Source: a virus (Duplodnaviria; Heunggongvirae; Uroviricota; Caudoviricetes). Taken from it: a stretch of DNA of 64,000 nt. The stretch is from the IMG/VR virus record IMGVR_UViG_2861084961_000001, one strand, 5' to 3'. The stretch's first letter is position 1. Each line of letters begins with the position of its first letter. The notes below the pieces were generated by a model, which was not told the DNA's origin, searched no databases, and saw only the letters and a program-made list of their open reading frames with translations. This document shows positions 814 to 57,570 of the stretch, in pieces. Made by a program: the position numbers and the translations under genes.

Positions 814-2921
814 ATGTCTAAAAAACGTTCCATCAAAGAGGTTCAGGACTTCCGTGACAGTGTAAAACGAGTAGTCGCTCTCCTTTCAGGTAAAAACATC
901 CCTGTTGCAGAACGAGGGGACGACGCTTATGTACGCTATAACGATGATGGAGAGCCAATTCTCGTAAACATCCCATCAATCCCGGATAACGCAACACCGG
1001 CATTGATGAATGCTGTGCGCGGATTTCTCGATCATGAGGTTGCTCACATTTTGTTTACCGATATTCGTGTGTCCAACAAAATGAGAGAAAAAGGACGCGT
1101 TCCTTCCTGGTCACTATGGAATGCCTTAGAAGACGTGTTCATCGAGCGAAAAATGGGGCAGGTCTTTAACGGAACGAGACGTAATCTGATGGCAACTCAG
1201 CGCCTTATAATCGAAAAAGTCTTTAAACCAAAGGCTTCAGAGGCTATTGATTATTGTGGCAAAGATCAGCGCGCGCTTTTTCTAAACTTCTTTCTCTGTC
1301 CGGTTGTAAGAGCCTGGGATGGCCAAGCACCGTTCGTAGATTTCATGGATGAATACTGGCCTGTCATTGAGAAACCAATTTCATTATTAAAAGAACATGG
1401 TATCGATGTGGCCGTGCGTAACATGTCTTGCACCGAGGATTGTGTAAAGGTGGCTGCGACCATAGCTAAGATCCTCAAAGACACTGAAAGTGAAAGCAAA
1501 GGTAAGGAGTCAGCTCCGGGAAAAACTTCCGATCCTTCAGATACTGACCAAACGGATGCCTCTGGAGAAAACAATGAAGACAACGAAGATCATGAGACAC
1601 CCTCAGCGTTAGATAATCACAAATCTATCGAATCAGAATCACACAGTAAGCACAAACATGATAATAACGACAGTGATGATTCAGATAATTCTGAATCATC
1701 AGAAACAATATTCGATGATACAGAAAATGATAAAGAGGTATCAGATTCTGATGCTTCTGATAACGCGGCGTCAGAATCATTAACCGCTGACCACGAAAAA
1801 AGAAAAACGACAGAAGACGGCTCTTCAGATATTCCAACTCCGTCAAAAATGAGTCTGGAAGAGGCTTTAGAGGAGCTGGATAGCATAGAAGATGAAGTCG
1901 GAGGCATGACAGAAGATGCTCTATCCGAAACGATTAAAAGCGAGTTAACAGAAAGCTCGAAAGCGAATACAGGCCATACAATCGCTCATACGACTTCATC
2001 GGCTCGATTGATCAGGCAGAAGCCCATATCAAACGGCTTATTAAAACATTCTCCGATATTGATTTAGGAGGATATCCAATCAGCCGCTATCGCATCGTTC
2101 CTGAAGGCAACCAGCTCTTCGACAAATATATTGAAAAGCATCTTTCGTCAGGTGTTTCGTCGACGCTGGCAAAAGACCTGGAGCGAGCAATAGCAAGCAG
2201 AAACAGAGTTCAGTTTATACCGGGCCAGCGTCGGGGGCGCATTCATGGTTCTAGTATCTACAGATTAGCAATGAATGATGATCGCGTGTTTCGTAAAAAA
2301 GAAGAATCTAAAGCCGTTAACGCCTGTGTTCAACAAGTGATTGATTTATCAGGTTCAATGAGTGGTATAACGATACAATTGGCTCTTGCAAGTGCATATA
2401 CCATCGCCGATGCCCTTGATCGAATAAATGTTCCCAACATTATCACCGGCTTCACTACATTTGGTAGTCATATGGCGGCAGGAGAACTTAAGGCTGTCAA
2501 GTATGAGTTCTCTCGCTTTGAATCTTTAATGCTACCTATCATCAAAAATTGGAATGAAAAGGCAAATTCTCGCGAAGTTCGCTCACGTATGGGGTGCGTA
2601 GGCTACACATTCCCACTTCTTAATAACGTGGATGGTGAAAGCATAGCCAGCCTTGCATCGTTATTTTCTGGTCGCATGGAGGACAAGAAGATCATGCTTG
2701 TTCTAAGCGATGGCGCGCCGTGGGCTGTTGGGAGAGGTTTTGACGCTCATTTGCGTTCGGTTGCGAAGCAAATTGAAACGCAGACTGACATTGATTTGAT
2801 GGCAATTGGCATCATGACTGACGCACCGGAGAGATTTTACGCAAACCATGCCCTGGTAACGAGCGTTGATAGTCTTGGTTCATCTGTAGTTACTGAACTA
2901 TCTCGTATCATTTTGAAGTGA
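814..2921 (+). CDS. CobT-like protein: N-terminal domain, D/E/S-rich acidic linker, C-terminal vWA domain (DLSGSMSG MIDAS motif); split by a frameshift near 1935
   Basis: ORFs 814..2067 and 2271..2921; the frame of 2271 is open back to about 1938 and reads as natural protein, junction at an A-run. Confidence 0.5.
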
Positions 2922-2938
2922 TTAGAACAGCCTTAATG

Positions 2939-2959
2939 ATAAGTAATCACTTACGTTAT
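2939..2959. promoter_or_regulatory. motif A palindrome (ATAAGTAA-N4-TTACGTTAT)
   Basis: Intergenic, upstream of 3017 gene. Confidence 0.4.
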
Positions 2960-3016
2960 TTGATGGTATATTTATATAAGAAGTTGAAAGCTCATTAGAA
3001 AACAAAGGAAAAACGC

Positions 3017-4430: not shown

Positions 4431-7400
4431 ATGAAGGCTCTGATGGTTCGAACTGACTTCTCTCTTGGGGAGTCGGCTCTAAAAGCAGAAAACGCGGTGA
4501 AGATTGCCAGAGAAGCTGGCTACACCGCTGTAATTTCGGCAGATAGCATGAATATTGCGAGTGTTATTCCACTACAACGTGCCGCTGGTGACGACATGGC
4601 GGTTATTTGTGGTGTGAAACTAAACATTGTTGATGATCCCACATACGAGCACCGGGCTAAACTTGCTAAAGAGTCTATGGGATGTATGGAATCATTAGAG
4701 CGTGGGCGGAACTACTCCTTTACCGCTCTAATTAAAAATGAGCAGGGATATCGAGACATCTGCGAACTAATGACGGCGGCCAACACACGAGAACAGTTCT
4801 ACTTTGTACCGCGTCTCTCGCTCGAACAGTTGGTTTCTACATATGCCAAAGGCAACATCATCCTGCTAACTTCCGACATCGGTAGCGTGTTCCAACGCAA
4901 CGATTTTGCAAAAATCATAAGCTCACTGATTACAGCGGGTGGAAAAGACAACTTCTATAGTGTGGTTTATCCGCACCCTACCCATTCTACGACCAGATTA
5001 ACGTCCGGGCGATGAAAGTCGCCAGCGCACTGAAAATAGAGCCAGTAGCGTTCTATCCCGCTTATTACGAATCGATCGACGATGCAGACATTAAAGACAT
5101 TGCGCACATGGTTACGAACAACATCAAAATCGACCAGCCGCATCGTCTGCGTATCCCCACCAGCGAGATAACGCCGTCAATTGTCGCCGCCATCTCCTTG
5201 AGGCGCTGAAAGCCTTCTCCGTTCGCATGGATGTGCCGGTAACAGCTGCAATGGCCTCAACAACGCAGGATACCATTATCGATGCCTGCACATGGCGCTG
5301 GCATGAATTGCCACCAGCACTGCCAAAGATGGCAGACGACGAGCCTGCAACTCTGATGAAACTGGCCGTTGCTGGGCTGCGTAAACGTCTTACCACAAAA
5401 GAGTTTGGCTACACACCACCGGCTTCTGAGAACAGGGTTTATGTTGAGCGACTTAAGTACGAAATGGATACGCTGACTCGCCTGGGATTCTGTGGTTACT
5501 TCCTGATGGTGCGCGATCTGATGAATCATAGTCGTGAAACTGGCATTCCCGTTGGGCCTGGTCGTGGTTCCTCTGCTGGCTCTTTGGTGGCATGGTGCAT
5601 AGGCATAACCAACGTCGACCCAATCCGTCACGGTCTTCTGTTTGAACGTTTCATCAACCCTGAGCGTCTCGACTTGCCGGATGCGGATTTGGACTTCAGC
5701 CAGGCACGTCGCCATGAAGTGATCGAGTATCTGAATGAACGCTACGGCGAAGATTACGTTGCGGGTATTCCGAACTTCACATATCTGGGCGCAGCCTCTG
5801 CACTACGTGACACCGCTCGTATTTATGGTGTGGAGTCCGCAGATATGGCGGTATCAAAGAACTGAAGAACGTCGAGGATGATAGCCTTCCATTGGAAGAA
5901 CTGCGCGAACAACTGGCAAGTCTCGACAAATACGCAACAAAATATCCTGATGCATTCAATGCAGCCTGCAAGTTACAAAGCCTTATGCGTGGCTTTGGTA
6001 GACATGCGGCAGGGATGATCGTAGCAGGTGTTCCTCTGACAGAACGTACACCGGTTGAACGACGTGGTGACGCGCGTTGTATCGCATTTGACAAGCGTTA
6101 CTGCGAGGCTATGGGCCTAATTAAGCTGGACGTGCTTGGCCTGGCAACTCTCGATTTGCTCGATAGTGCAAAACGCTACATAAAAGAGAACACAGGTGAA
6201 GATATCAATCTTGATGCCATTTCTCTTGAAGATCGCAAGGTGCTGGATGGTTTTGCTGCTGGGTACACTCAAGGTGTTTTCCAGCTTGAATCAGGCCCAA
6301 TGCGCAAGCTGCTTAAAGATTTAGGTGGTGGAATTGAGCCAATGAGCTTTAAAACGGTCGTCGCTACGACTGCGCTCTTCCGGCCGGGGCCAATTCAGTC
6401 AGGCATGTTGGATGACTATGTTTCTGTAGCCAAAGGCTTTATGAAGCCGGAATCATTACACCCCGTTCTTGATGAACTTACCGCAGAAACAAATGGCGTG
6501 ATTCTCTATCAGGAACAGACGATGAACGCGACTCGATTGCTTGCTGGCTTCACAATGGCTGAAGCTGACGGTGTTCGTAAAGCGATCGGCAAAAAGGACA
6601 TGGAAAAATGAAGAGCATGGGCGAGAAGTTCATCGTTCAGGCTCAAGCTGGCTGGATAGACGTTGAGCTGGAAGATGGCACTACACAGCGCATTCACCGT
6701 GCGGAACATTTTAAATGCGAAGACGGAACTCTGAAAACTGTCGAAGAGGCACTTGAGTACGGCGCAAAACTACCTATAAACGCAGTACGCGTTACAGCGT
6801 CACATCCAGGGCTATCAGAGATGAAAGCGAAGGAGATCTGGACCGCATTCGAAAAAAATGGAGCCTACCAGTTCAACAAATCACACTCTGTTGCTTACTC
6901 CTTAATCAGTTATCAATCTATGTGGTTGAAAACTCATTATCCCGCAGAGTTTTCGCTGCTGCTCTCACTATTCTTGGCGAAGATAAACACCAGGGGCTGG
7001 TTAAAGATGCGCTGACCTATGGTATTCGCGTATTGCCACCAGACGTTAACGTGTCATCTAACCGAATCGAGATCCGCACGCTTGAAGATGGCAGCCAGGT
7101 GCTGTATGCGCCCTTCTCTGCTGTGAAGGGGTGTTCTGAGAATGGCTGCCAGGCCATCATGAGAGCGCGAGAAAGGGTTGGCGGCAAATTCGAGTCACTG
7201 GCGCAATTCGAAGAAGCTGTCGAGAAACGTGCCTGTAATAGTCGAGTGCGCGAATCACTGCAAAAAGTAGGTGCGTTTGCGTCCATAGAGCCAGGTAGTC
7301 TGCCAGCAACTGATCCAGAGCGTCTCCGCGACCAAGCAGAATTGATGGGAAACCTTGTCATAGATGCAGTTAAAGCCTCACGTCCGTTTGAGATGAACCC

Positions 7401-49328: not shown

Positions 49329-49485
49329 CCCGTCTCCTTTATTTTAATTTGCGCAATTGTCGCCTTGTAGTGTACTCCAGCTACGACATTTAATCATTTA
49401 TGAGAAATGCTGTTATCACATGGCAGACATAAGGCCATTTTGTTACTATCAAGCCCCTTTTCACTACAAAGAAGTAATGCCTACT

Positions 49486-51519
49486 ATGACCCAAGTCGCG
49501 AAGAAAATTCTGGTGACGTGCGCGCTGCCGTACGCTAACGGCTCAATCCACCTCGGCCATATGCTGGAGCACATCCAGGCTGATGTCTGGGTTCGTTACC
49601 AGCGAATGCGCGGCCACGAGGTTAATTTCATCTGTGCCGACGATGCCCACGGTACGCCGATCATGCTGAAAGCACAGCAGCTTGGTATCACACCGGAACA
49701 GATGATTGGCGAAATGAGCCAGGAACACCAGACTGATTTCGCAGGCTTTAACATCAGCTATGACAACTATCACTCGACGCACAGCGAAGAGAACCGCCAG
49801 CTGTCTGAGCTTATCTATACTCGCCTGAAAGAGAACGGTTTTATTAAAAACCGCACTATCTCTCAGTTGTACGACCCGGAAAAAGGCATGTTCCTGCCGG
49901 ATCGTTTTGTGAAAGGCACCTGTCCGAAATGTAAAGCGCCAGATCAATACGGCGATAACTGTGAAGTTTGCGGCGCGACCTACAGCCCGACTGAACTGAT
50001 TGAGCCGAAATCGGTAGTTTCTGGCGCTACGCCGGTAATGCGTGATTCTGAACACTTCTTCTTTGATCTGCCCTCTTTCAGCGAAATGTTGCAGGCATGG
50101 ACCCGCAGCGGTGCGTTGCAGGAGCAGGTGGCAAACAAAATGCAGGAGTGGTTTGAATCTGGTCTGCAACAGTGGGATATCTCCCGCGACGCACCTTACT
50201 TCGGTTTTGAAATTCCGAACGCGCCGGGTAAATATTTCTACGTCTGGCTGGACGCACCGATTGGCTACATGGGTTCCTTCAAGAATCTGTGCGACAAGCG
50301 CGGCGACACTACCAGCTTCGATGAATACTGGAAGAAAGACTCCACCGCCGAGCTGTACCACTTCATCGGTAAAGATATCGTTTACTTCCACAGCCTGTTC
50401 TGGCCTGCCATGCTGGAAGGCAGCAACTTCCGCAAGCCGACCAACCTGTTTGTTCACGGCTATGTGACGGTGAACGGCGCGAAGATGTCCAAGTCTCGCG
50501 GCACCTTTATTAAAGCCAGCACCTGGTTGAATCATTTTGACGCTGACAGCCTGCGTTACTACTACACCGCCAAACTGTCTTCGCGCATTGATGATATCGA
50601 TCTCAACCTGGAAGATTTCGTTCAGCGCGTGAATGCCGATATCGTGAACAAAGTGGTTAACCTGGCCTCCCGTAATGCGGGCTTTATCAACAAACGTTTT
50701 GACGGCGTGCTGGCAAGCGAACTGGCTGACCCGCAACTGTACAAAACCTTTACTGATGCCGCTGAAGTGATTGGCGAAGCATGGGAAAGCCGCGAATTTG
50801 GTAAAGCTATCCGTGAAATCATGGCATTGGCTGACCTGGCTAACCGCTATGTCGATGAACAGGCTCCGTGGGTGGTGGCGAAGCAGGAAGGACGCGATGC
50901 CGATCTGCAGGCGATTTGCTCTATGGGCATTAACCTGTTCCGCGTGCTGATGACTTACCTGAAACCGGTACTGCCGAAACTGACAGAACGTGCGGAAGCA
51001 TTCCTCAATACGGAACTGACCTGGGATGGCATCCAGCAACCGCTGCTGGGCCATAAAGTGAATCCGTTCAAAGCACTGTATAACCGTATCGACATGAAAC
51101 AGGTGGAAGCATTGGTGGAAGCGTCTAAAGAAGAAGTGAAAGCTACTGCCGCGCCAGTTACTGGCCCGCTGGCAGACGACCCGATTCAGGAAACCATCAC
51201 CTTTGACGACTTTGCCAAAGTTGACCTGCGCGTGGCGCTGATCGAAAACGCAGAGTTTGTTGAAGGTTCTGACAAACTGCTGCGCCTGACGCTGGATCTC
51301 GGCGGTGAAAAACGTAATGTCTTCTCAGGCATCCGTTCCGCTTATCCAGACCCACAGGCACTGATTGGCCGTCACACCATTATGGTGGCTAACCTGGCTC
51401 CGCGTAAAATGCGTTTCGGTATCTCCGAAGGCATGGTGATGGCTGCTGGCCCCGGCGGGAAAGACATCTTCCTGTTAAGCCCGGATGCTGGTGCTAAACC
51501 TGGCCACCAGGTTAAGTAA
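49486..51519 (+). CDS. metG: methionyl-tRNA synthetase, intact, host-type
   Basis: [29 protein letters not shown] (HIGH-type), KMSKS, C-terminal tRNA-binding domain; start at ATG 49486 inside track ORF 49357..51519. Confidence 0.95.
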
Positions 51520-52025: not shown

Positions 52026-52759
52026 ATGAAAAAGTTGAAAAGTTTAGAAATCCCTGGGACTGGTTATAAATTCTTTATGGACAACGCGGAGTGTGCGCCT
52101 AACGCGTTGGAAAAAATACAAAGTCTTATCAACAGCCTTACTGAAGAAGCGAAAGAACTGAAGAGCGAGGCGACAAAGGACAATACAGCTAAAATCCAAT
52201 GCTTAAATCTCGTCTCTTATTGTTTATATCAAGTATCCAAAACACTGATTAAAGGCAATATCTATTACGACGATGAAGACACCTCGACACCTGAAGAAAA
52301 GATAGCGATGAAGAACTCTATGAAGATATCTCTACTAGTGCGGGTCACGCTGCCTTCGATGCTATGGGTAAATCGTCAGGCATCAGATCATTTGTTGAAC
52401 AGAACAATTCGACAATAATGATTGAGTACTGTGAACAAACAAGCTCCAAGGCCATACATGTTCTTCACGATGTTGCTGCAGGGGTTCGTTGTGAGGCTGA
52501 AGCGGTAAGAAAAGATGTATTTGGTGCAGACAGTAATACCGTGAAAGCGTTTATCAACAGTGCTCTGCTAAATTCTTACTCAAACCTTATAGTCAATGCG
52601 GCACTATGCGCAAATTCAGGTGAAGAACACATTGTCATAACCGAAACCAAACATGAGCATCAACAGTCACCAACCATAGAAGAGGTAACTGCATTGGCTA
52701 TCAAACAGGCGAGTGAAATTAGTGATGAAATTCTCTCTCTGCTAAACAAAACTAGGTAA
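52026..52759 (+). CDS. hypothetical protein (ORFs 52026..52418 and 52364..52759, probably one gene)
   Basis: ORF track; overlapping frames. Confidence 0.35.
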
Positions 52760-52869
52760 AACATTGATAATGGCGGTCACAATTTGATTCTTTTCTATAA
52801 GAATCCGTTGATCGCCACTACTCCCCTTCCATACCTGCAATCACATCCTTAAATATCAATAGGTTGTAG

Positions 52870-53660
52870 TTGTTTATACAAACAAGAAAACAACTGAATA
52901 ACAGATCAACGAAACGTCAACGCTTTCACCCGATTTGGTCTAAAAAATTGACGTTTTCACACATCACTTCTTATACCCGCAATCCTACGCAGCAGACAGC
53001 GCCACAGCGTCCAATTTTCACCACAGACGACCCAACACACCACCAACAAAAACACACGCTCAAAATCGCTCTCGTTGCGTTACATAACCATATAAACAAC
53101 TTATTTTCAGGCATAACAAAACAACTAAATAACACATACGCAATTCCCAAAAACAACCAACCTCTTTATTGCAGGCTACCGAAAAGACCCACCTCTTCTT
53201 CCCAGGCTACCGGACAACCAACCTAACTTTCACAGGCAATCCGAAAACATTCATGCGCGCGATACCCACGACACGCCATTCCCCAAACAGCGAAGAAACA
53301 CCTGAACCACCGAAACCCCAACGAAGCCTGTAACCGCAAGGATTCTCTCAATCCCAAAAGACACGAAACATAACAATCACGGGAAACGCCATTACCCAAT
53401 ACACGAATAACTACAAAAGCCTTTCACACACTCCAGACAAACAACTCAAACACAATAACGAAAGGAATCGCCCACCTGCCATTACTCCATACACGGAGAA
53501 GAACAAGCACCAAAACGACGAGAACATCCCACAGAAGAACCACCGCAAAACTAACGAAACCATTTACACCGACAGAGAGAACAACACACCCAATTCACCA
53601 ACAGAATTAGTCGCCGTATAGAACGTTCTGGAAGGAGTGAGCATTAACGTCCATAGAGAG
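52870..53660. repeat. strand-asymmetric CA-rich non-coding region containing CAGGCTACCG-type direct repeats
   Basis: Plus strand almost free of G or T runs for about 800 bp; only ORF there is low-complexity; repeats near 53170, 53200, 53235. Confidence 0.45.
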
Positions 53661-53779
53661 GTTGAGACAGATAAAACACGAAGAAAACACAACATGTATA
53701 GCGAAGAAGCCAGGTATGTATAAGTGGGGAGGGAAGGAGGGGTGTCGCCTCCTTTTTCGTATTTATTCAACTCCTGATT

Positions 53780-53960
53780 TTATCCCCCGTAACACCCCTA
53801 CGGTCAGCCTTCGGTCCATACAGGGAAAGGCTGCATCCCGCTACAGAAACGGCTGGGTTGCCTTTGGGGAACGGCTGGAGGTTTTCAGGGAAACGGTCGA
53901 GTTGCCTTTGTGGATTTCGGGAAAAGGCTCGATGCCGGTTCAGGAACGGCGGCGTACCGG
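53780..53960. repeat. array of about six GGGAAACGGCT-like direct repeats spaced 22-30 bp
   Basis: CAGGGAAAGGCTG, CAGAAACGGCTGG, GGGAACGGCTGG, GGGAAACGGTCG, GGGAAAAGGCTCG, CAGGAACGGCGG. Confidence 0.45.
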
Positions 53961-54286
53961 TATAGCGAGAGGGAGAGTTGCGGCTACCCACCTGTAATGT
54001 GCGGGAAGAAGAGAGGCGCTCACGTGCAGGCGGACTTGCTTACCGCTGGATTCCCTCTGAATGCCCAGCTACAGCGTAATTGTGCCAGACAGCCAACGGG
54101 TCACGATCGATTTCAGTAGGTTTTCGGGGAGAGGATTATTCTGTCCACCAGCCACCTTCGGCCACTAAATCAGAATAATGTAAAAAGTGTACTCGGTACT
54201 GAACCTGAAAACTCACTGCCAAAACCACATTCACCGGAATAAAATCCTTTTTCGCCTGTGCGTTATTGCGATAATAACACCAACAA

Positions 54287-54301
54287 GAAAACATGTTGTT
54301 T
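54287..54301. promoter_or_regulatory. motif B palindrome (GAAAACATGTTGTTT)
   Basis: Upstream of 54314 gene. Confidence 0.4.
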
Positions 54302-56268: not shown

Positions 56269-56436
56269 TATTAAGACCACCAGCATTGGTGGTCTTAAAT
56301 GACCATCCTGTTTCCCGCAGGCTAAAAACACCAACCTCTTACCTCCAGGCAACCGACAAACCCACCTGTTCCCGTCAGGCTACCGCAACTTTCCACTTTG
56401 ACGCCTTATTCGTACAACGATAATTAACGCCAACAA

Positions 56437-56471: not shown

Positions 56472-56954
56472 ATGAATTTTATCGCTACTGTAAACGCACC
56501 CGCACATGGCAATATCGCTGTAACGTTCTCTGACATTGAAAAACGAGTACTTGGTGCCTGGCGTCACAATGAGACGGTAGAACTGTCAGCACAAGAAAAA
56601 TGCATTATTGCACGCGACATCATTGGCAATCGTCGTTACTCGCGGGTATTTGAGAAAGCGTATGTGGTAAATTCTGGATTCGGAACGTTCGTCTTTCCGG
56701 TGCGCTCCGGGCGATTCTGCCAGTCCAAGCTGATTGAGTTCGCTACGCAGATTTCTGTCTGGATTAAAACTCAATCGTCGTTCAAATTTTCCGACGATGA
56801 AGCAGTATCGCAGGGGATGCGGATCGCCAACAATGCAATTAAATGCAAAAACATTACGTATACCGCTGGCGTTGATACATGGAAACTGTTTTGCGCTAAC
56901 TTTATGCTGAATGTATACGCAAGCAACCGCATCCACATCCTTGATGGCGTGTAA
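56472..56954 (+). CDS. hypothetical protein (160 aa)
   Basis: ORF track; motif-B site upstream; followed by hairpin AGGGCC-AGAAAC-GGCCCT. Confidence 0.45.
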   Translation: MNFIATVNAPAHGNIAVTFSDIEKRVLGAWRHNETVELSAQEKCIIARDIIGNRRYSRVFEKAYVVNSGFGTFVFPVRSGRFCQSKLIEFATQISVWIKTQSSFKFSDDEAVSQGMRIANNAIKCKNITYTAGVDTWKLFCANFMLNVYASNRIHILDGV

Positions 56955-57570
56955 CTGAGAAGAGGGCCAGAAACGGCCCTTTCTCTATAGCCACCAGCTG
57001 CCGCAGGGAAATTTTCAGAAACGGCGAGGAACGTATTCATGAGCCGACGGGAAACGGCCAGGATTTTTTTCGGGAAACGGCTGTATTCGCCTTTATGTAG
57101 AAAAACATCGGGAAGCTGGTGGAATCCAACCAGCGGTTGTCGGACAGGTGAGCGGGGAAAATTATAATGACTTTCGTCGCCTGAGACATCCAGATTTCTT
57201 TCGTAGCATAATCACATACGTGATTAAGTGGTGTGATTATGTGAAAAATCACGCGCACATAATACGCGATCGGACACAGAACAAAACAAAATGCCGATCC
57301 GCACCGACAAATACACGCTGATCACATAGCAAGACTAAAAGCCAATGATTAACCATACTCTATAGCGCAATATAACGCGCTTTAAGCGCGTTAATGTGTT
57401 AAGTAATGGGTATGTACTGGCGAGGATATAAAAGCGCGACTATGGCGTTATTTTGGCGCTTATTTTTATGTTGTTGGAGTGAGTTAAAGACAATAAATAA
57501 CGCGCCAATGATGGCGCGTTATGGTGGGAGTATTGGAAACGAAAAAAGCGCCCATAGTGGGCGCTCGATT

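Follow-up and report, generated by a model that had tools for sequence, protein, structure and literature searches.

A strand-skewed A+C-rich tract within a conserved non-coding, probable control locus of SSU5-type phage-plasmids

Lytic origins that are activated by transcription or gated by a repressor are represented by oriLambda with pR and by P1 oriL with the C1-controlled P53. Both of these origins lie inside initiator genes and contain no long strand-skewed tract; the origins of T4 are short and show no skew. In the iteron replicons of mini-F (incB-repE-incC) and P1 (incC-repA-incA), opposed repeat clusters are located around the rep gene. C/A-rich sequence is a known type of GcvB target, and AgvB and SroC are anti-GcvB sponges. 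Deamination is an established cause of strand skew in mitochondrial heavy strands and in non-template strands. In the case of Rho, all tested templates with a C>G bubble longer than 78 bp or with a bubble area above 700 were terminated in vitro, the longest bubble among the tested templates being 355 bp, and the descriptors %CA, %AAC, %ACA and %CAC were positively associated with termination (PMC6144790). The bubble thresholds used here were taken from that study (PMC6144790).

The window analyzed in this work, a stretch of 64,000 nucleotides, is an SSU5-type phage-plasmid, and the complete 108-kb phage Cyrano is 96.7% identical to it. The largest non-coding gap of the genome (~1.5 kb) contains as its left arm a tract rich in A and C. 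This tract makes up the body (0.7 kb) of a conserved non-coding locus of ~1.5 kb that probably serves these phage-plasmids as a control region. Similar to oriLambda and P1 oriL, the locus has phased short repeats beside an operator-bearing transcription unit and belongs to a phage with its own replication proteins, but it differs from both in having no identified initiator, AT-rich unwinding element or DnaA box. The replication genes of the phage encode a DnaB-like helicase, a primase, Pol III alpha and epsilon and a gp32-like SSB, and UvsX, UvsY, UvsW and RNase H are encoded as well. With UvsW, UvsX, UvsY, the gp32-like SSB and RNase H, the phage is comparable to the systems with R-loop-primed origins, T4 oriF/oriG and ColE1 RNA II. 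No lytic initiator or origin is present in the phage annotation, and no initiator was detected by PHROG either. Full-text searching and look-ups in papers returned nothing on this locus.

Composition, coding status and conservation of the tract

The initial annotation had described positions 52,870-53,660 as a strongly strand-skewed, CA-rich region unlike anything else in the window, and its coordinates were accurate. Sliding-window calculation gave 70-77% A+C on the + strand for 52,880-53,660 (z up to 5.7), and the skew was far outside the normal range of the element. In 200-nt windows, A+C was 0.66-0.775 at 52,851-53,700 versus a window mean of 0.504 +/- 0.047, and no 200-nt window elsewhere exceeded 0.625. 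In 500-nt windows, the GC skew was -0.48 and the AT skew +0.42 at 53,001-53,500, and the rest of the window came nowhere near these values. The base composition of 52,985-53,640 was A 0.39, C 0.32, G 0.13 and T 0.15, so that T was depleted as much as G. The composition flips at ~53,700. In Cyrano, the tract was the sole compositional extreme of 108 kb (0.738 A+C per 600 nt versus 0.501 +/- 0.030; next highest 600-nt value, 0.593), and the same skew was found in each lineage compared. The A+C fraction was 0.71 inside the annotated motifs and 0.72 outside them; an origin of the skew as a by-product of oriented motifs was therefore rejected. The GC content fell only to 0.39, at 52,501-53,000. Cumulative GC skew was uninformative for locating an origin because the curve was monotonic.

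The absence of a credible ORF was also supported. The region does contain an ORF of 118 aa (52,870-53,226). This ORF could be assigned to neither a Pfam nor a PHROG family, and a conserved protein product was not detected. None of the ORFs in 52,870-54,119 matched Pfam, PHROG or PADLOC, and the exact ORF products had no record in the assembly collection; each flanking gene matched a PHROG at E<1e-49. Stops occurred in all six frames of the tract in 7 lineages, the longest open frame shifted between lineages, no 3-nt periodicity was present in the tract, and its indels were mostly not multiples of three (4-11 such indels per lineage pair). A protein-coding reading of either strand was rejected on the basis of stops, indels and the lack of a family match. 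Two further coding possibilities were discarded, namely mini-ORFs initiated at an ATG within the reverse-complemented GCCATTAC, which were not alike, and a decayed copy of the 160-aa gene located 3 kb away, for which tblastn gave no match even at E 100. With Rfam 15, no match reached the gathering score in the whole window, and the matches passing a permissive filter were at chance level (E 1.4-2.2) and lay left of the tract. The A+C tract is non-coding and, if transcribed, it is untranslated.

Although non-coding, the tract is conserved above saturated synonymous sites, which supports the earlier proposal of a functional non-coding element. Between lineages, identity at synonymous-type sites of the flanking genes was 0.34-0.40, that is, saturated, versus 0.61-0.68 for the tract. 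The unit measured 1,002-1,063 nt in 61 of the 62 distinct copies. These comparisons show that the A+C tract is under purifying selection. In pCAV1015-111, of the distant pCAV lineage, the body of the tract was not alignable but still showed 0.63-0.72 A+C at the syntenic position, where the A+C stretch is followed by repeats with a period of ~22 bp. The composition is thus conserved beyond alignable sequence. The tract was carried by 837 PLSDB plasmids and was retained in reduced derivatives as well. A partial copy was observed in a 200-kb K. variicola plasmid in a leading-region context; this context was set aside, since the copy resembles a truncated relic within a mosaic.

These data bear on the possibility that the tract itself is a non-functional relic, the skew of which is a mutational by-product such as deamination of an often single-stranded strand. 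The complementary strand is indeed G+T-rich, the pattern left by C-to-T and A-to-G deamination of exposed strands. However, greater conservation than at saturated synonymous sites, conserved length and motifs, retention in >800 plasmids and the occurrence of only one such region in 108 kb make a relic extremely unlikely.

Operators, hairpins and repeats of the locus

The conserved unit extends over ~52,760-54,290 and is wider than the region flagged initially. In the gap, an early-gene leader carrying the dispersed operator comes first; a terminator-like hairpin, the A+C body and a G-rich block follow in this sequence. At the left end, a box TTCTATAAGAnnCGTTGATCGCC with the inverted repeat GGCGGTCA / TGATCGCC (52,770-52,816, + strand) was invariant across 7 lineages; its 6-bp stem was kept in 91-96% of 23 variants, with little variation there. 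The early-gene-type leader with a half operator (TTATACAAACAAGAAAACAA...; 52,874-52,902, + strand) scored 24.3 with a PWM built from 12 real promoter-proximal leaders, in which real sites score 12-28, and AAGAAAACAA was invariant across lineages. The hairpin TGACGT-TTTCAC-ACATCA, flanked by an A6 tract and CTTCTTATAC (52,942-52,976), was the most conserved block of the locus. The A+C-rich body (52,980-53,660, + strand), delimited by the skew and the non-coding tests, contains a copy of the dispersed operator palindrome, GAAAACAAnTTGTTT, at 53,094-53,108, which is followed by a half site at 53,114-53,125. To the right of the body there are an invariant TATAAG box (53,719-53,724) and a purine/pyrimidine hairpin (53,731-53,757), together 53,716-53,757 on the + strand.

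The dispersed operator palindrome had 23 matches (~14 sites) in the window versus 1.3 expected, and elsewhere it follows the -10 of + strand early genes and precedes their ribosome-binding site. In one plasmid (L009), a small ORF was inserted in + orientation directly after the operator. The neighbouring genes and the leader modules were all on the + strand; the leader module and the gene orientation suggest that the + strand of the tract would be transcribed. No consensus sigma-70 promoter was predicted on either strand, in Klebsiella-type or SSU5 copies, which speaks against an origin. The single conserved promoter look-alike, TTGACG-17-TTATAC, has a poor -10 and overlaps the left hairpin. 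No intrinsic terminator was found on the + strand between the stop codon at 52,759 and 53,731. In the 3' hairpin, 94.8% of cells were paired and the pairing was GU-heavy; only 2 pairs changed on both sides, so that covariation on the + strand was weak, and a U-tract was present only in the E. coli type.

The left hairpin may be read in the opposite direction. Its minus-strand RNA reached -10 to -17.6 kcal/mol in E. coli- and SSU5-type variants and -6 to -9 in the Klebsiella type, versus ~-3 to -10 overall for the + RNA, and it was flagged as a minus-strand terminator in SSU5. At the left boundary the hairpin thus looks like a leftward terminator, which weighs against the + direction proposed for the origin transcript. 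A functional leftward transcript could be a GU-rich RNA across the tract, or a small RNA of ~150-170 nt from the operator at 53,108 to the hairpin at ~52,940. The hairpin with its U6 is far more stable on the minus strand and shows wobble-compatible changes (two wobble-varying pairs, and one compensatory pair, AU 9 : GC 9), the best match of the operator at 53,094-53,108 is obtained in minus orientation, and the succession of conserved block, variable stretch and conserved hairpin at 52,930-53,108 is like that of a small-RNA gene. However, no minus-strand promoter was found at the locus, all neighbouring genes and leader modules are on the + strand, and a GU-rich strand pairs more by composition alone. 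The minus-strand RNA of the tract has ordinary foldability, so a leftward transcript leaves the skew unexplained. We regard it as highly unlikely.

The CAGGCTACCG-type direct repeats reported ~30 bp apart were confirmed as 3 + 3 copies. Within the tract, three R1 repeats (ACCnACCT-N9-CAGGCTACC; 53,156-53,241, + strand) start at 53,156, 53,187 and 53,217 with a period of 30-31 bp, and copies 1 and 2 were nearly invariant across lineages. The recurrence noted near 56325-56390 was likewise found, as three copies starting at 56,302, 56,330 and 56,360 (56,302-56,384, + strand) immediately before the promoter and operator that serve the 160-aa gene; these two clusters were the only ones in the entire Cyrano genome. 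R2 motifs, GCCATT(A/C)C(C/T)C (53,275-53,504, + strand), were located at 53,275, 53,388 and 53,478, the last being extended to GCCATTACTCCATACACGGAGAAGAAC. They were all in + orientation, irregularly spaced with 3-6 copies per lineage, and not helically phased. The G-rich block (53,844-53,950, + strand) contains five iteron-like GGGAAAnGGC(TGG) motifs, the reverse complement of the R2 motif family, spaced 22, 22, 31 and 22 bp. In 5 of 5 lineages, every RCCnTTnCYC of the body was in + orientation and every copy of the G-rich block in minus orientation, the latter copies being spaced 22, 31 or 44 bp. Helically phased short direct repeats, as expected of iterons, were therefore present in the G-rich array of 5 lineages and in R1 (30-31 bp). 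Folding of G-rich block RNA gave no signal (MFE z +1.6 and +0.75), and a structured RNA was rejected there on this basis.

The 160-aa gene (phrog_1641; 56,472-56,954, + strand) is flanked by the two repeat families of the tract, with R1 upstream and two copies of GGGAAACGGC, 23 bp apart, downstream (57,049-57,081, + strand). Both the second R1 cluster and the GGGAAACGGC pair were kept in SSU5 and pMT1. The arrangement resembles the mini-F and P1 iteron replicons in that two repeat families flank a gene and recur at a second site without the gene. It differs from them in that the 160-aa protein has no detectable similarity to Rep proteins, and the real RepA replicon lies elsewhere. A confident structure model of the protein was obtained, but no structural neighbour or solved fold was detected. 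We infer that proteins bind the repeats of the tract, and the 160-aa protein is a candidate binder of those flanking its gene. A type III toxin-antitoxin locus of the ToxI type was considered and rejected: R1 forms an array of 3 x 30 nt, but no Pfam or PADLOC toxin match was nearby, and the second R1 cluster is followed by a promoter and not by a terminator. No PADLOC or Pfam model of a defence system matched near the locus. By eye, the reverse complement of R1 (CGGTAGCCTG) matched positions 3-12 of the RfaH ops element; we treated this match as a coincidence because it is on the minus strand with no gene downstream.

The repeats could form a purely double-stranded DNA site array for a phage regulator or a segregation protein, for which transcription would not matter. 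It could be centromere-like, act in handcuffing or titration, or soak up the repressor or the 160-aa protein. The opposed motif arrays with 22-bp and 30-bp phasing agree with this, as do the repeats flanking a conserved gene, which is usual for autoregulated DNA-binding proteins, and a mild enrichment of half-operator-like sequences (6 versus 2.3 +/- 1.5). Yet the skew does not weaken between motifs and outlasts sequence replacement, the R2 copies lack helical phasing, and the annotated ParA and ParB genes are elsewhere in the genome, away from the locus. A site array of this kind is quite unlikely to be the whole explanation.

RNA structure, Rho and a possible function in trans

The + RNA of the tract was the least structured in 64 kb (-29.5 kcal/mol per 300 nt versus -78.6 +/- 11.5; z +4.3), while its minus-strand RNA was average. 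In 78-nt windows, a C>G bubble extended over 52,716-53,585 with a length of 870 nt, an area of 15,604 %xbp and a maximum %C-%G of 30.8; it was 2.8 times the next largest on either strand. As in rut regions, an uninterrupted C>G bubble of at least ~80 nt was thus present on the non-template strand. The (YC)N9-13 chains in the bubble were not enriched over the rest of the window; two chains of four and none of six were found, just enough for the one chain of four expected of a rut region. Given the least foldable + RNA and the very large bubble, the tract is predicted to be a Rho substrate, and Rho would act on its + strand RNA.

Like rut regions such as lambda tR1, the tract is untranslated, C-rich, G-poor and unstructured on the presumed transcribed strand, and its A+C composition fits the descriptors %CA, %AAC, %ACA and %CAC (PMC6144790). 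It differs from them in its bubble of 870 nt versus 355 bp for the longest tested, its depletion in T, its lack of YC-chain enrichment and a sequence that is itself conserved and filled with repeats. The tract might be nothing but a very long Rho-dependent terminator or insulator against untranslated read-through from the upstream early operon, which would be halted ahead of the iteron block and the transcription units beyond it. Leftward transcripts would be stopped likewise by a weaker C-rich stretch that the G-rich block has on its other strand. The bubble size judged by the published in-vitro rule (PMC6144790), the lack of a + strand intrinsic terminator from 52,759 to 53,731, the flip in composition and the minus-strand gene that faces the G-rich block in SSU5, Enterobacter and Cronobacter copies are all in agreement with such a role. 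However, ~80 nt would suffice, yet 650-700 nt are kept with conserved length and under purifying selection above synonymous sites. The repeated conserved motifs are left unaccounted for, the T depletion equals the G depletion and is not needed for Rho binding, and in Klebsiella copies the upstream neighbour gene is transcribed away from the tract. A terminator alone is therefore unlikely.

The RNA gene suggested in the initial annotation is conceivable: the + RNA would be uniquely free of structure, and hairpins flank the tract. No Rfam match was obtained. The product could be a trans-acting, structure-free + RNA of 0.65-0.85 kb, co-expressed with the early genes and serving as decoy or scaffold for a factor that binds single-stranded RNA. 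Host Rho, which prefers naked C-rich, G-poor RNA, is the obvious candidate; alternatively, a phage protein might read the repeated GCCAUUAC, CAGGCUACCG or UUUCAC motifs. This possibility accords with the loss of structure, which is unique and specific to the + strand, with the extreme bubble, with equal skew in motif and non-motif sequence and with composition that persists where the sequence is lost. Repeat families in one orientation, with R2 irregular, are what single-strand reading would lead one to expect, and an early-gene-like leader with operator and hairpins at both ends are present. Against it, no transcript data for the tract were found in the literature, and a metagenome scan for transcript-shaped contigs returned DNA contigs only. 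The phased R1 and G-rich array recurring near a promoter and gene point instead to binding of double-stranded DNA. Overall, we judge a trans-acting RNA somewhat unlikely.

Known sponges were compared with the tract in this context. As in CrcZ and CsrB/RsmZ, motifs are repeated in one orientation in an otherwise unstructured RNA, although the tract is several times longer than CsrB/CsrC, CrcZ or SroC and, in contrast to sponge RNAs, has no enrichment of ARN or GGA, only shuffle-level GcvB pairing and no Rfam match. Hfq ARN motifs (ARNx3, ARNx4), CsrA GGA and MazF ACA were not enriched over shuffles (GGA and ARN in 5 lineages), so that a motif sponge for Hfq, CsrA or MazF was rejected; both this result and the YC chains weigh against a trans-acting RNA. 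The mean duplex energy with GcvB was -19.1 versus -18.5 +/- 0.7 in shuffles, and the sole perfect match of at least 10 nt lay in a non-conserved segment at 53,685. Since complementarity was not above shuffles, an anti-GcvB sponge of the AgvB or SroC type was rejected as well. A narrower version, in which selection keeps the RNA free of G and U and thereby unable to base-pair, as a decoy for Rho or another single-strand RNA-binding factor that frees phage transcription from Rho silencing, is decidedly doubtful. Because Rho moves along RNA and then releases it, a simple decoy would need to be very abundant. As a decoy, the RNA would be the element's best Rho ligand, expressed once the prophage repressor is lifted, and would be the RNA counterpart of the protein Rho inhibitor Psu.

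A possible repressor-gated origin or control locus

The tract is probably part of the control of phage lytic replication or early transcription. Among the specific explanations, we tentatively prefer a repressor-gated lytic origin or control locus in which the tract is an arm that is transcribed and not translated. A rightward (+) transcript would begin behind the early-gene-type leader and operator and cross the tract, which is kept nearly free of G and U, so that the RNA and the displaced + DNA strand would both be unable to fold. The tract would offer the R1 repeats and the + oriented 10-bp predicted protein-binding motifs. The transcript would then head toward the G-rich block, where the same 10-bp motif is inverted with two-turn (22-bp), iteron-like phasing. 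Transcription into or beside these iterons would restrict firing to times without the prophage repressor, possibly by transcriptional activation or R-loop priming as in oriLambda, P1 oriL, T4 oriF and ColE1. Any naked C-rich RNA arising by stray transcription at other times would be shortened by Rho, for which it would be a substrate.

Several results are relevant to whether the locus may be an origin. Of the functions suggested in the initial annotation, a lytic origin or another cis site of the replication type gained circumstantial support from the phased inverted iteron-like arrays, the operator of the dispersed regulon, the position in the largest gap and the phage's own replisome without an annotated origin. 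Using nearest-neighbour parameters, the difference between hybrid and duplex energy of the + RNA was most favoured in the window at the G-rich block (z -2.7), and an untranslated transcript running into this block would, like those of R-loop origins, form the most favoured hybrid. With the same parameters the A+C body was unremarkable (z ~-1), which distinguishes it from R-loop origins and argues against an origin. No AT-rich unwinding element was found at the locus, no conserved DnaA or IHF consensus was seen by eye in the alignments, and no cognate initiator was identified, the 160-aa protein being the only candidate. An origin alone does not account for 650 nt being A+C-rich.

Other DNA functions fared less well. 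A packaging site is unlikely, as the terminase genes are ~14 kb away. A recombination site, or an invertible segment between the inverted YTATAC boxes, found no support and was rejected, since all 62 distinct copies had the same orientation. A plasmid origin was also rejected, because a RepA replicon with iterons lies 33 kb from the locus and pMT1 of Y. pestis, which we take to be a plasmid only, appears to lack the tract. This plasmid keeps the 160-aa gene; the tract was absent from the 14.5 kb around it, and the named genera of the 837 plasmids with the tract do not include Yersinia.

Phage-plasmids of the SSU5, pHCM2, pKpn and pCAV types occur widely in clinical Escherichia, Salmonella, Klebsiella and Enterobacter. 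The tract lies in their largest non-coding locus, together with an operator of the early regulon and origin-like repeats, and the locus is therefore an obvious place for the switch from plasmid to lytic replication. A 0.7-kb A+C composition maintained by selection past alignability is unusual for bacteria and phages. It implies that one strand is selected for its properties when single-stranded, be it as a structure-free RNA or as displaced DNA. Either an origin arm of a new kind or a long regulatory RNA with an 'anti-structure' role could come to light here.

Composition and coding status of the tract

The tract, an A+C-rich stretch of the + strand (52,980-53,660), lies inside a non-coding gap (~52,760-54,290) that is longer than any other in the genome. 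The initial annotation had described a strand-skewed A+C region unlike the rest of the window, and calculation confirmed this: in 200-nt windows A+C reached 0.66-0.775 at 52,851-53,700 (z up to 5.7), against a mean of 0.504 ± 0.047 over the whole window, and the skews at 53,001-53,500 were extreme (GC -0.48, AT +0.42). The tract was also the single outlier in the reassembled 108-kb genome of its relative Cyrano, with an A+C content per 600 nt of 0.738 versus 0.501 ± 0.030; the next-highest value was 0.593. Masking all recognised motifs left A+C unchanged (0.72 vs. 0.71), and the skew is therefore not a side-effect of oriented repeats.

The 118-aa ORF and all other ORFs at 52,870-54,119 gave no Pfam, PHROG or PADLOC match, while all flanking genes had strong PHROG matches. 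In seven lineages all six frames contained stops, the frame of the longest open stretch varied, and most indels between the lineages were not divisible by three. Together with the absence of 3-nt periodicity from the tract, these results rejected a protein-coding reading and upheld the early impression that no credible ORF was present. An Rfam search returned no match, and no description of the A+C locus was found in Rfam families, annotations or the literature.

Over 52,700-53,900 the sequence shares 96.7% identity with Escherichia phage Cyrano and 93-96% with other SSU5-like elements. The Cyrano annotation indicates a siphovirus phage-plasmid with an IncFIB-type RepA (window ~19.1-20.2 kb), a replication set (DnaB-like helicase, primase, Pol III alpha and epsilon, gp32-like SSB) and its own UvsX/RecA, UvsY, UvsW, RNase H, ligase, SbcCD and RuvC. 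Neither a lytic initiator nor an origin is named in that annotation, and none turned up when the unnamed genes around the helicase were scanned against PHROG. A full-length methionyl-tRNA synthetase gene is located at 49357-51519 in this E. coli-type phage-plasmid (MetRS in the Cyrano annotation); the corresponding SSU5 region examined has no such annotation. The coiled-coil protein gene (52026-52759; phrog_20845), a single 735-nt CDS in Cyrano, is split in the window into two ORFs that overlap: 52026-52418 aligns with profile positions 1-93 and 52364-52759 with positions 114-244. The split reflects a frameshift, a decayed gene or an error in sequencing.

Distribution and conservation

Blastn against PLSDB detected the tract in 837 plasmids, among them 430 from Klebsiella, 223 from Escherichia, 90 from Enterobacter and 49 from Salmonella, almost always without annotation. 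Contigs from IMG/VR, from metagenomes and from Kluyvera/Buttiauxella carry it as well. The same skew occurred in every copy. Neighbouring genes served as the reference: between the E. coli type and the types of SSU5, Cronobacter and Klebsiella, their conserved codons of the four-fold type were saturated at the third position (0.34-0.40 identity), while the tract retained 0.61-0.68 identity over ~650 nt, equal to adjacent coding DNA. The unit measured 1,002-1,063 nt in 61 of the 62 distinct copies. These comparisons show that the tract is conserved and under selection; that it is a mere relic is extremely improbable.

The strongest evidence for selection is the locus of pCAV1015-111, a distant plasmid with just 33% identity in the 160-aa marker protein. 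At the syntenic position it has a 1.45-kb non-coding locus in which the upstream box, the leader/operator and the hairpin are retained. With blastn at word 9 the 700-nt body, again followed by repeats of ~22-bp period, aligned to none of the other versions, but its A+C content remains 0.63-0.72; composition is therefore held independently of sequence.

Two copies were rearranged. In Salmonella pN16S089-2 an insertion of ~200 nt (~2720-3000) encoding a 61-aa ORF on the + strand lies right behind the operator inside the locus. A 200-kb mosaic non-phage plasmid of K. variicola carries a truncated copy, the left two-thirds of the locus, between an HNH endonuclease gene and psiA.

Architecture of the locus and the dispersed operator

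In the alignments the leftmost element of the locus is a conserved box, TTCTATAAGAnnCGTTGATCGCC. It is followed by an early-gene-type leader module (52,874-52,902; score 24.3 versus 12-28 at real promoter-proximal leaders) and by the most conserved block, a hairpin TGACGT/ACATCA with A6 and CTTCTTATAC flanks (52,942-52,976). A full palindrome, GAAAACAAnTTGTTT, is located at 53,094-53,108. The CAGGCTACCG-type direct repeats reported initially, ~30 bp apart with a second cluster downstream, were recovered as three R1 copies (ACCnACCT-N9-CAGGCTACC; 53,156-53,241, period 30-31 bp) and three more at 56,302-56,384, with no other cluster in the genome. Read on the minus strand, the R1 box gives CGGTAGCCTG, which agrees with positions 3-12 of GGCGGTAGnnTG, the RfaH ops element (53164-53173, 53195-53204 and cluster 2); the resemblance is probably coincidental, because no genes lie downstream on that strand. 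Chi (GCTGGTGG) is ~ten-fold over-represented in the window (14 sites versus 1.3 expected, 10 on the minus strand), including sites at 54145-54152, 56277-56284 and 56991-56998, and two 26-nt repeats with Chi stand ahead of R1-type regions.

Within the A+C body, R2 (GCCATTACCC) occurs in three to six irregularly spaced copies, all on the + strand. Five TTTCAC hexamers were read by eye against ~0.1 expected from base composition by hand calculation. An invariant TATAAG box with a purine/pyrimidine hairpin (53,716-53,757) precedes a G-rich block (53844-53950) in which GGGAAAnGGC(TGG) occurs five times, at spacings of 22, 22, 31 and 22 bp. GGGAAAnGGC corresponds to the R2 family read on the opposite strand, and RCCnTTnCYC runs on the + strand throughout the A+C body and on the - strand throughout the G-rich block in all five of five lineages. 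The iteron-like block is kept in all lineages and gave no RNA-folding signal; the 135-aa ORF annotated over it in Cyrano is not conserved.

The palindrome had 23 matches in the window (~14 sites; 1.3 expected), at 780-796, 13186, 27490, 37704, 38431, 39145, 42055, 51602, 51653, 53094, 54287, 54770, 55673 and 56437. Nearly all copies lie 10-12 nt past a -10 hexamer and immediately ahead of the ribosome-binding site in early genes of the + strand; one adjoins the HTH repressor gene. It looks like a dispersed operator, and the set resembles a P1-C1-style repressor regulon. There are strong grounds for placing putative phased double-stranded DNA binding sites and an early-regulon operator in the locus of the tract. 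A purely double-stranded binding array would account for such sites and is improbable as a reading of the whole.

The conserved 160-aa gene (phrog_1641), 3 kb right of the tract, has R1 upstream of its promoter and two copies of GGGAAACGGC downstream, in the window as in SSU5 and pMT1. Its AlphaFold model is confident (pLDDT 92), and no structural neighbour of the model was found. Descent of the A+C body from a decayed copy of this gene was rejected by comparison. Y. pestis pMT1, known only as a plasmid, keeps the gene and has no A+C block in the 14.5 kb around it, and the genera named for the 837 plasmids do not include Yersinia. This pattern fits a role in the cycle of the phage and not in maintenance of the plasmid. 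At this site (Y. pestis pMT, 5856-6314) pMT1 is without the early accessory region that carries the locus in other members, and an IS1541 copy adjoins the retained gene module.

Strand, RNA properties and possible function

No other sequence of the window folds as poorly as the tract when read as + strand RNA (-29.5 versus -78.6 ± 11.5 kcal/mol per 300 nt, z +4.3), while the minus-strand RNA is average because G-U pairs are available. The findings as a whole argue firmly that selection targets the single-stranded form of the + strand, as structure-free untranslated RNA or a displaced DNA strand. The leader module and the orientation of every neighbouring gene and operator point to transcription of the + strand, as do the small + ORF inserted just past the operator in one Salmonella plasmid and a GU-rich right-end hairpin, workable on the + strand alone and with weak covariation. 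Transcription of the minus strand is favoured by the left hairpin with U6, which is far more stable as minus-strand RNA and shows one compensatory change from AU to GC and wobble variation at two pairs. A leftward RNA as the functional product is very improbable. Consensus scans of both strands found no promoters.

The C>G bubble, computed after Nadiras et al. (PMC6144790), spans 870 nt with an area of 15,604 %xbp, 2.8 times the next largest on either strand. In that study every tested template above a size limit showed Rho-dependent termination, and the tract exceeds this size >20 times. Well-spaced YC chains were not enriched in the tract. A plain Rho insulator is rather unlikely, and a trans-acting structure-free RNA, such as a decoy for Rho or a protein, is somewhat unlikely. 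Hfq, CsrA, MazF and GcvB sponge ideas were tested and found no support. With nearest-neighbour parameters, hybrid-versus-duplex energy was unremarkable in the A+C body and the most favourable of the window for + RNA in the adjacent G-rich block.

As the reading that best unites these observations, we tentatively propose that the locus may be a lytic origin or control region gated by the repressor, in which the tract would form the transcribed arm. By analogy, it would work like oriLambda/pR, P1 oriL/P53 or T4 oriF, and Rho would clear naked tract RNA that is made at the wrong moment. On this reading the locus would be a non-coding phage control region or origin whose composition-constrained arm is without precedent; something more novel than such a variant has a small chance of being true.
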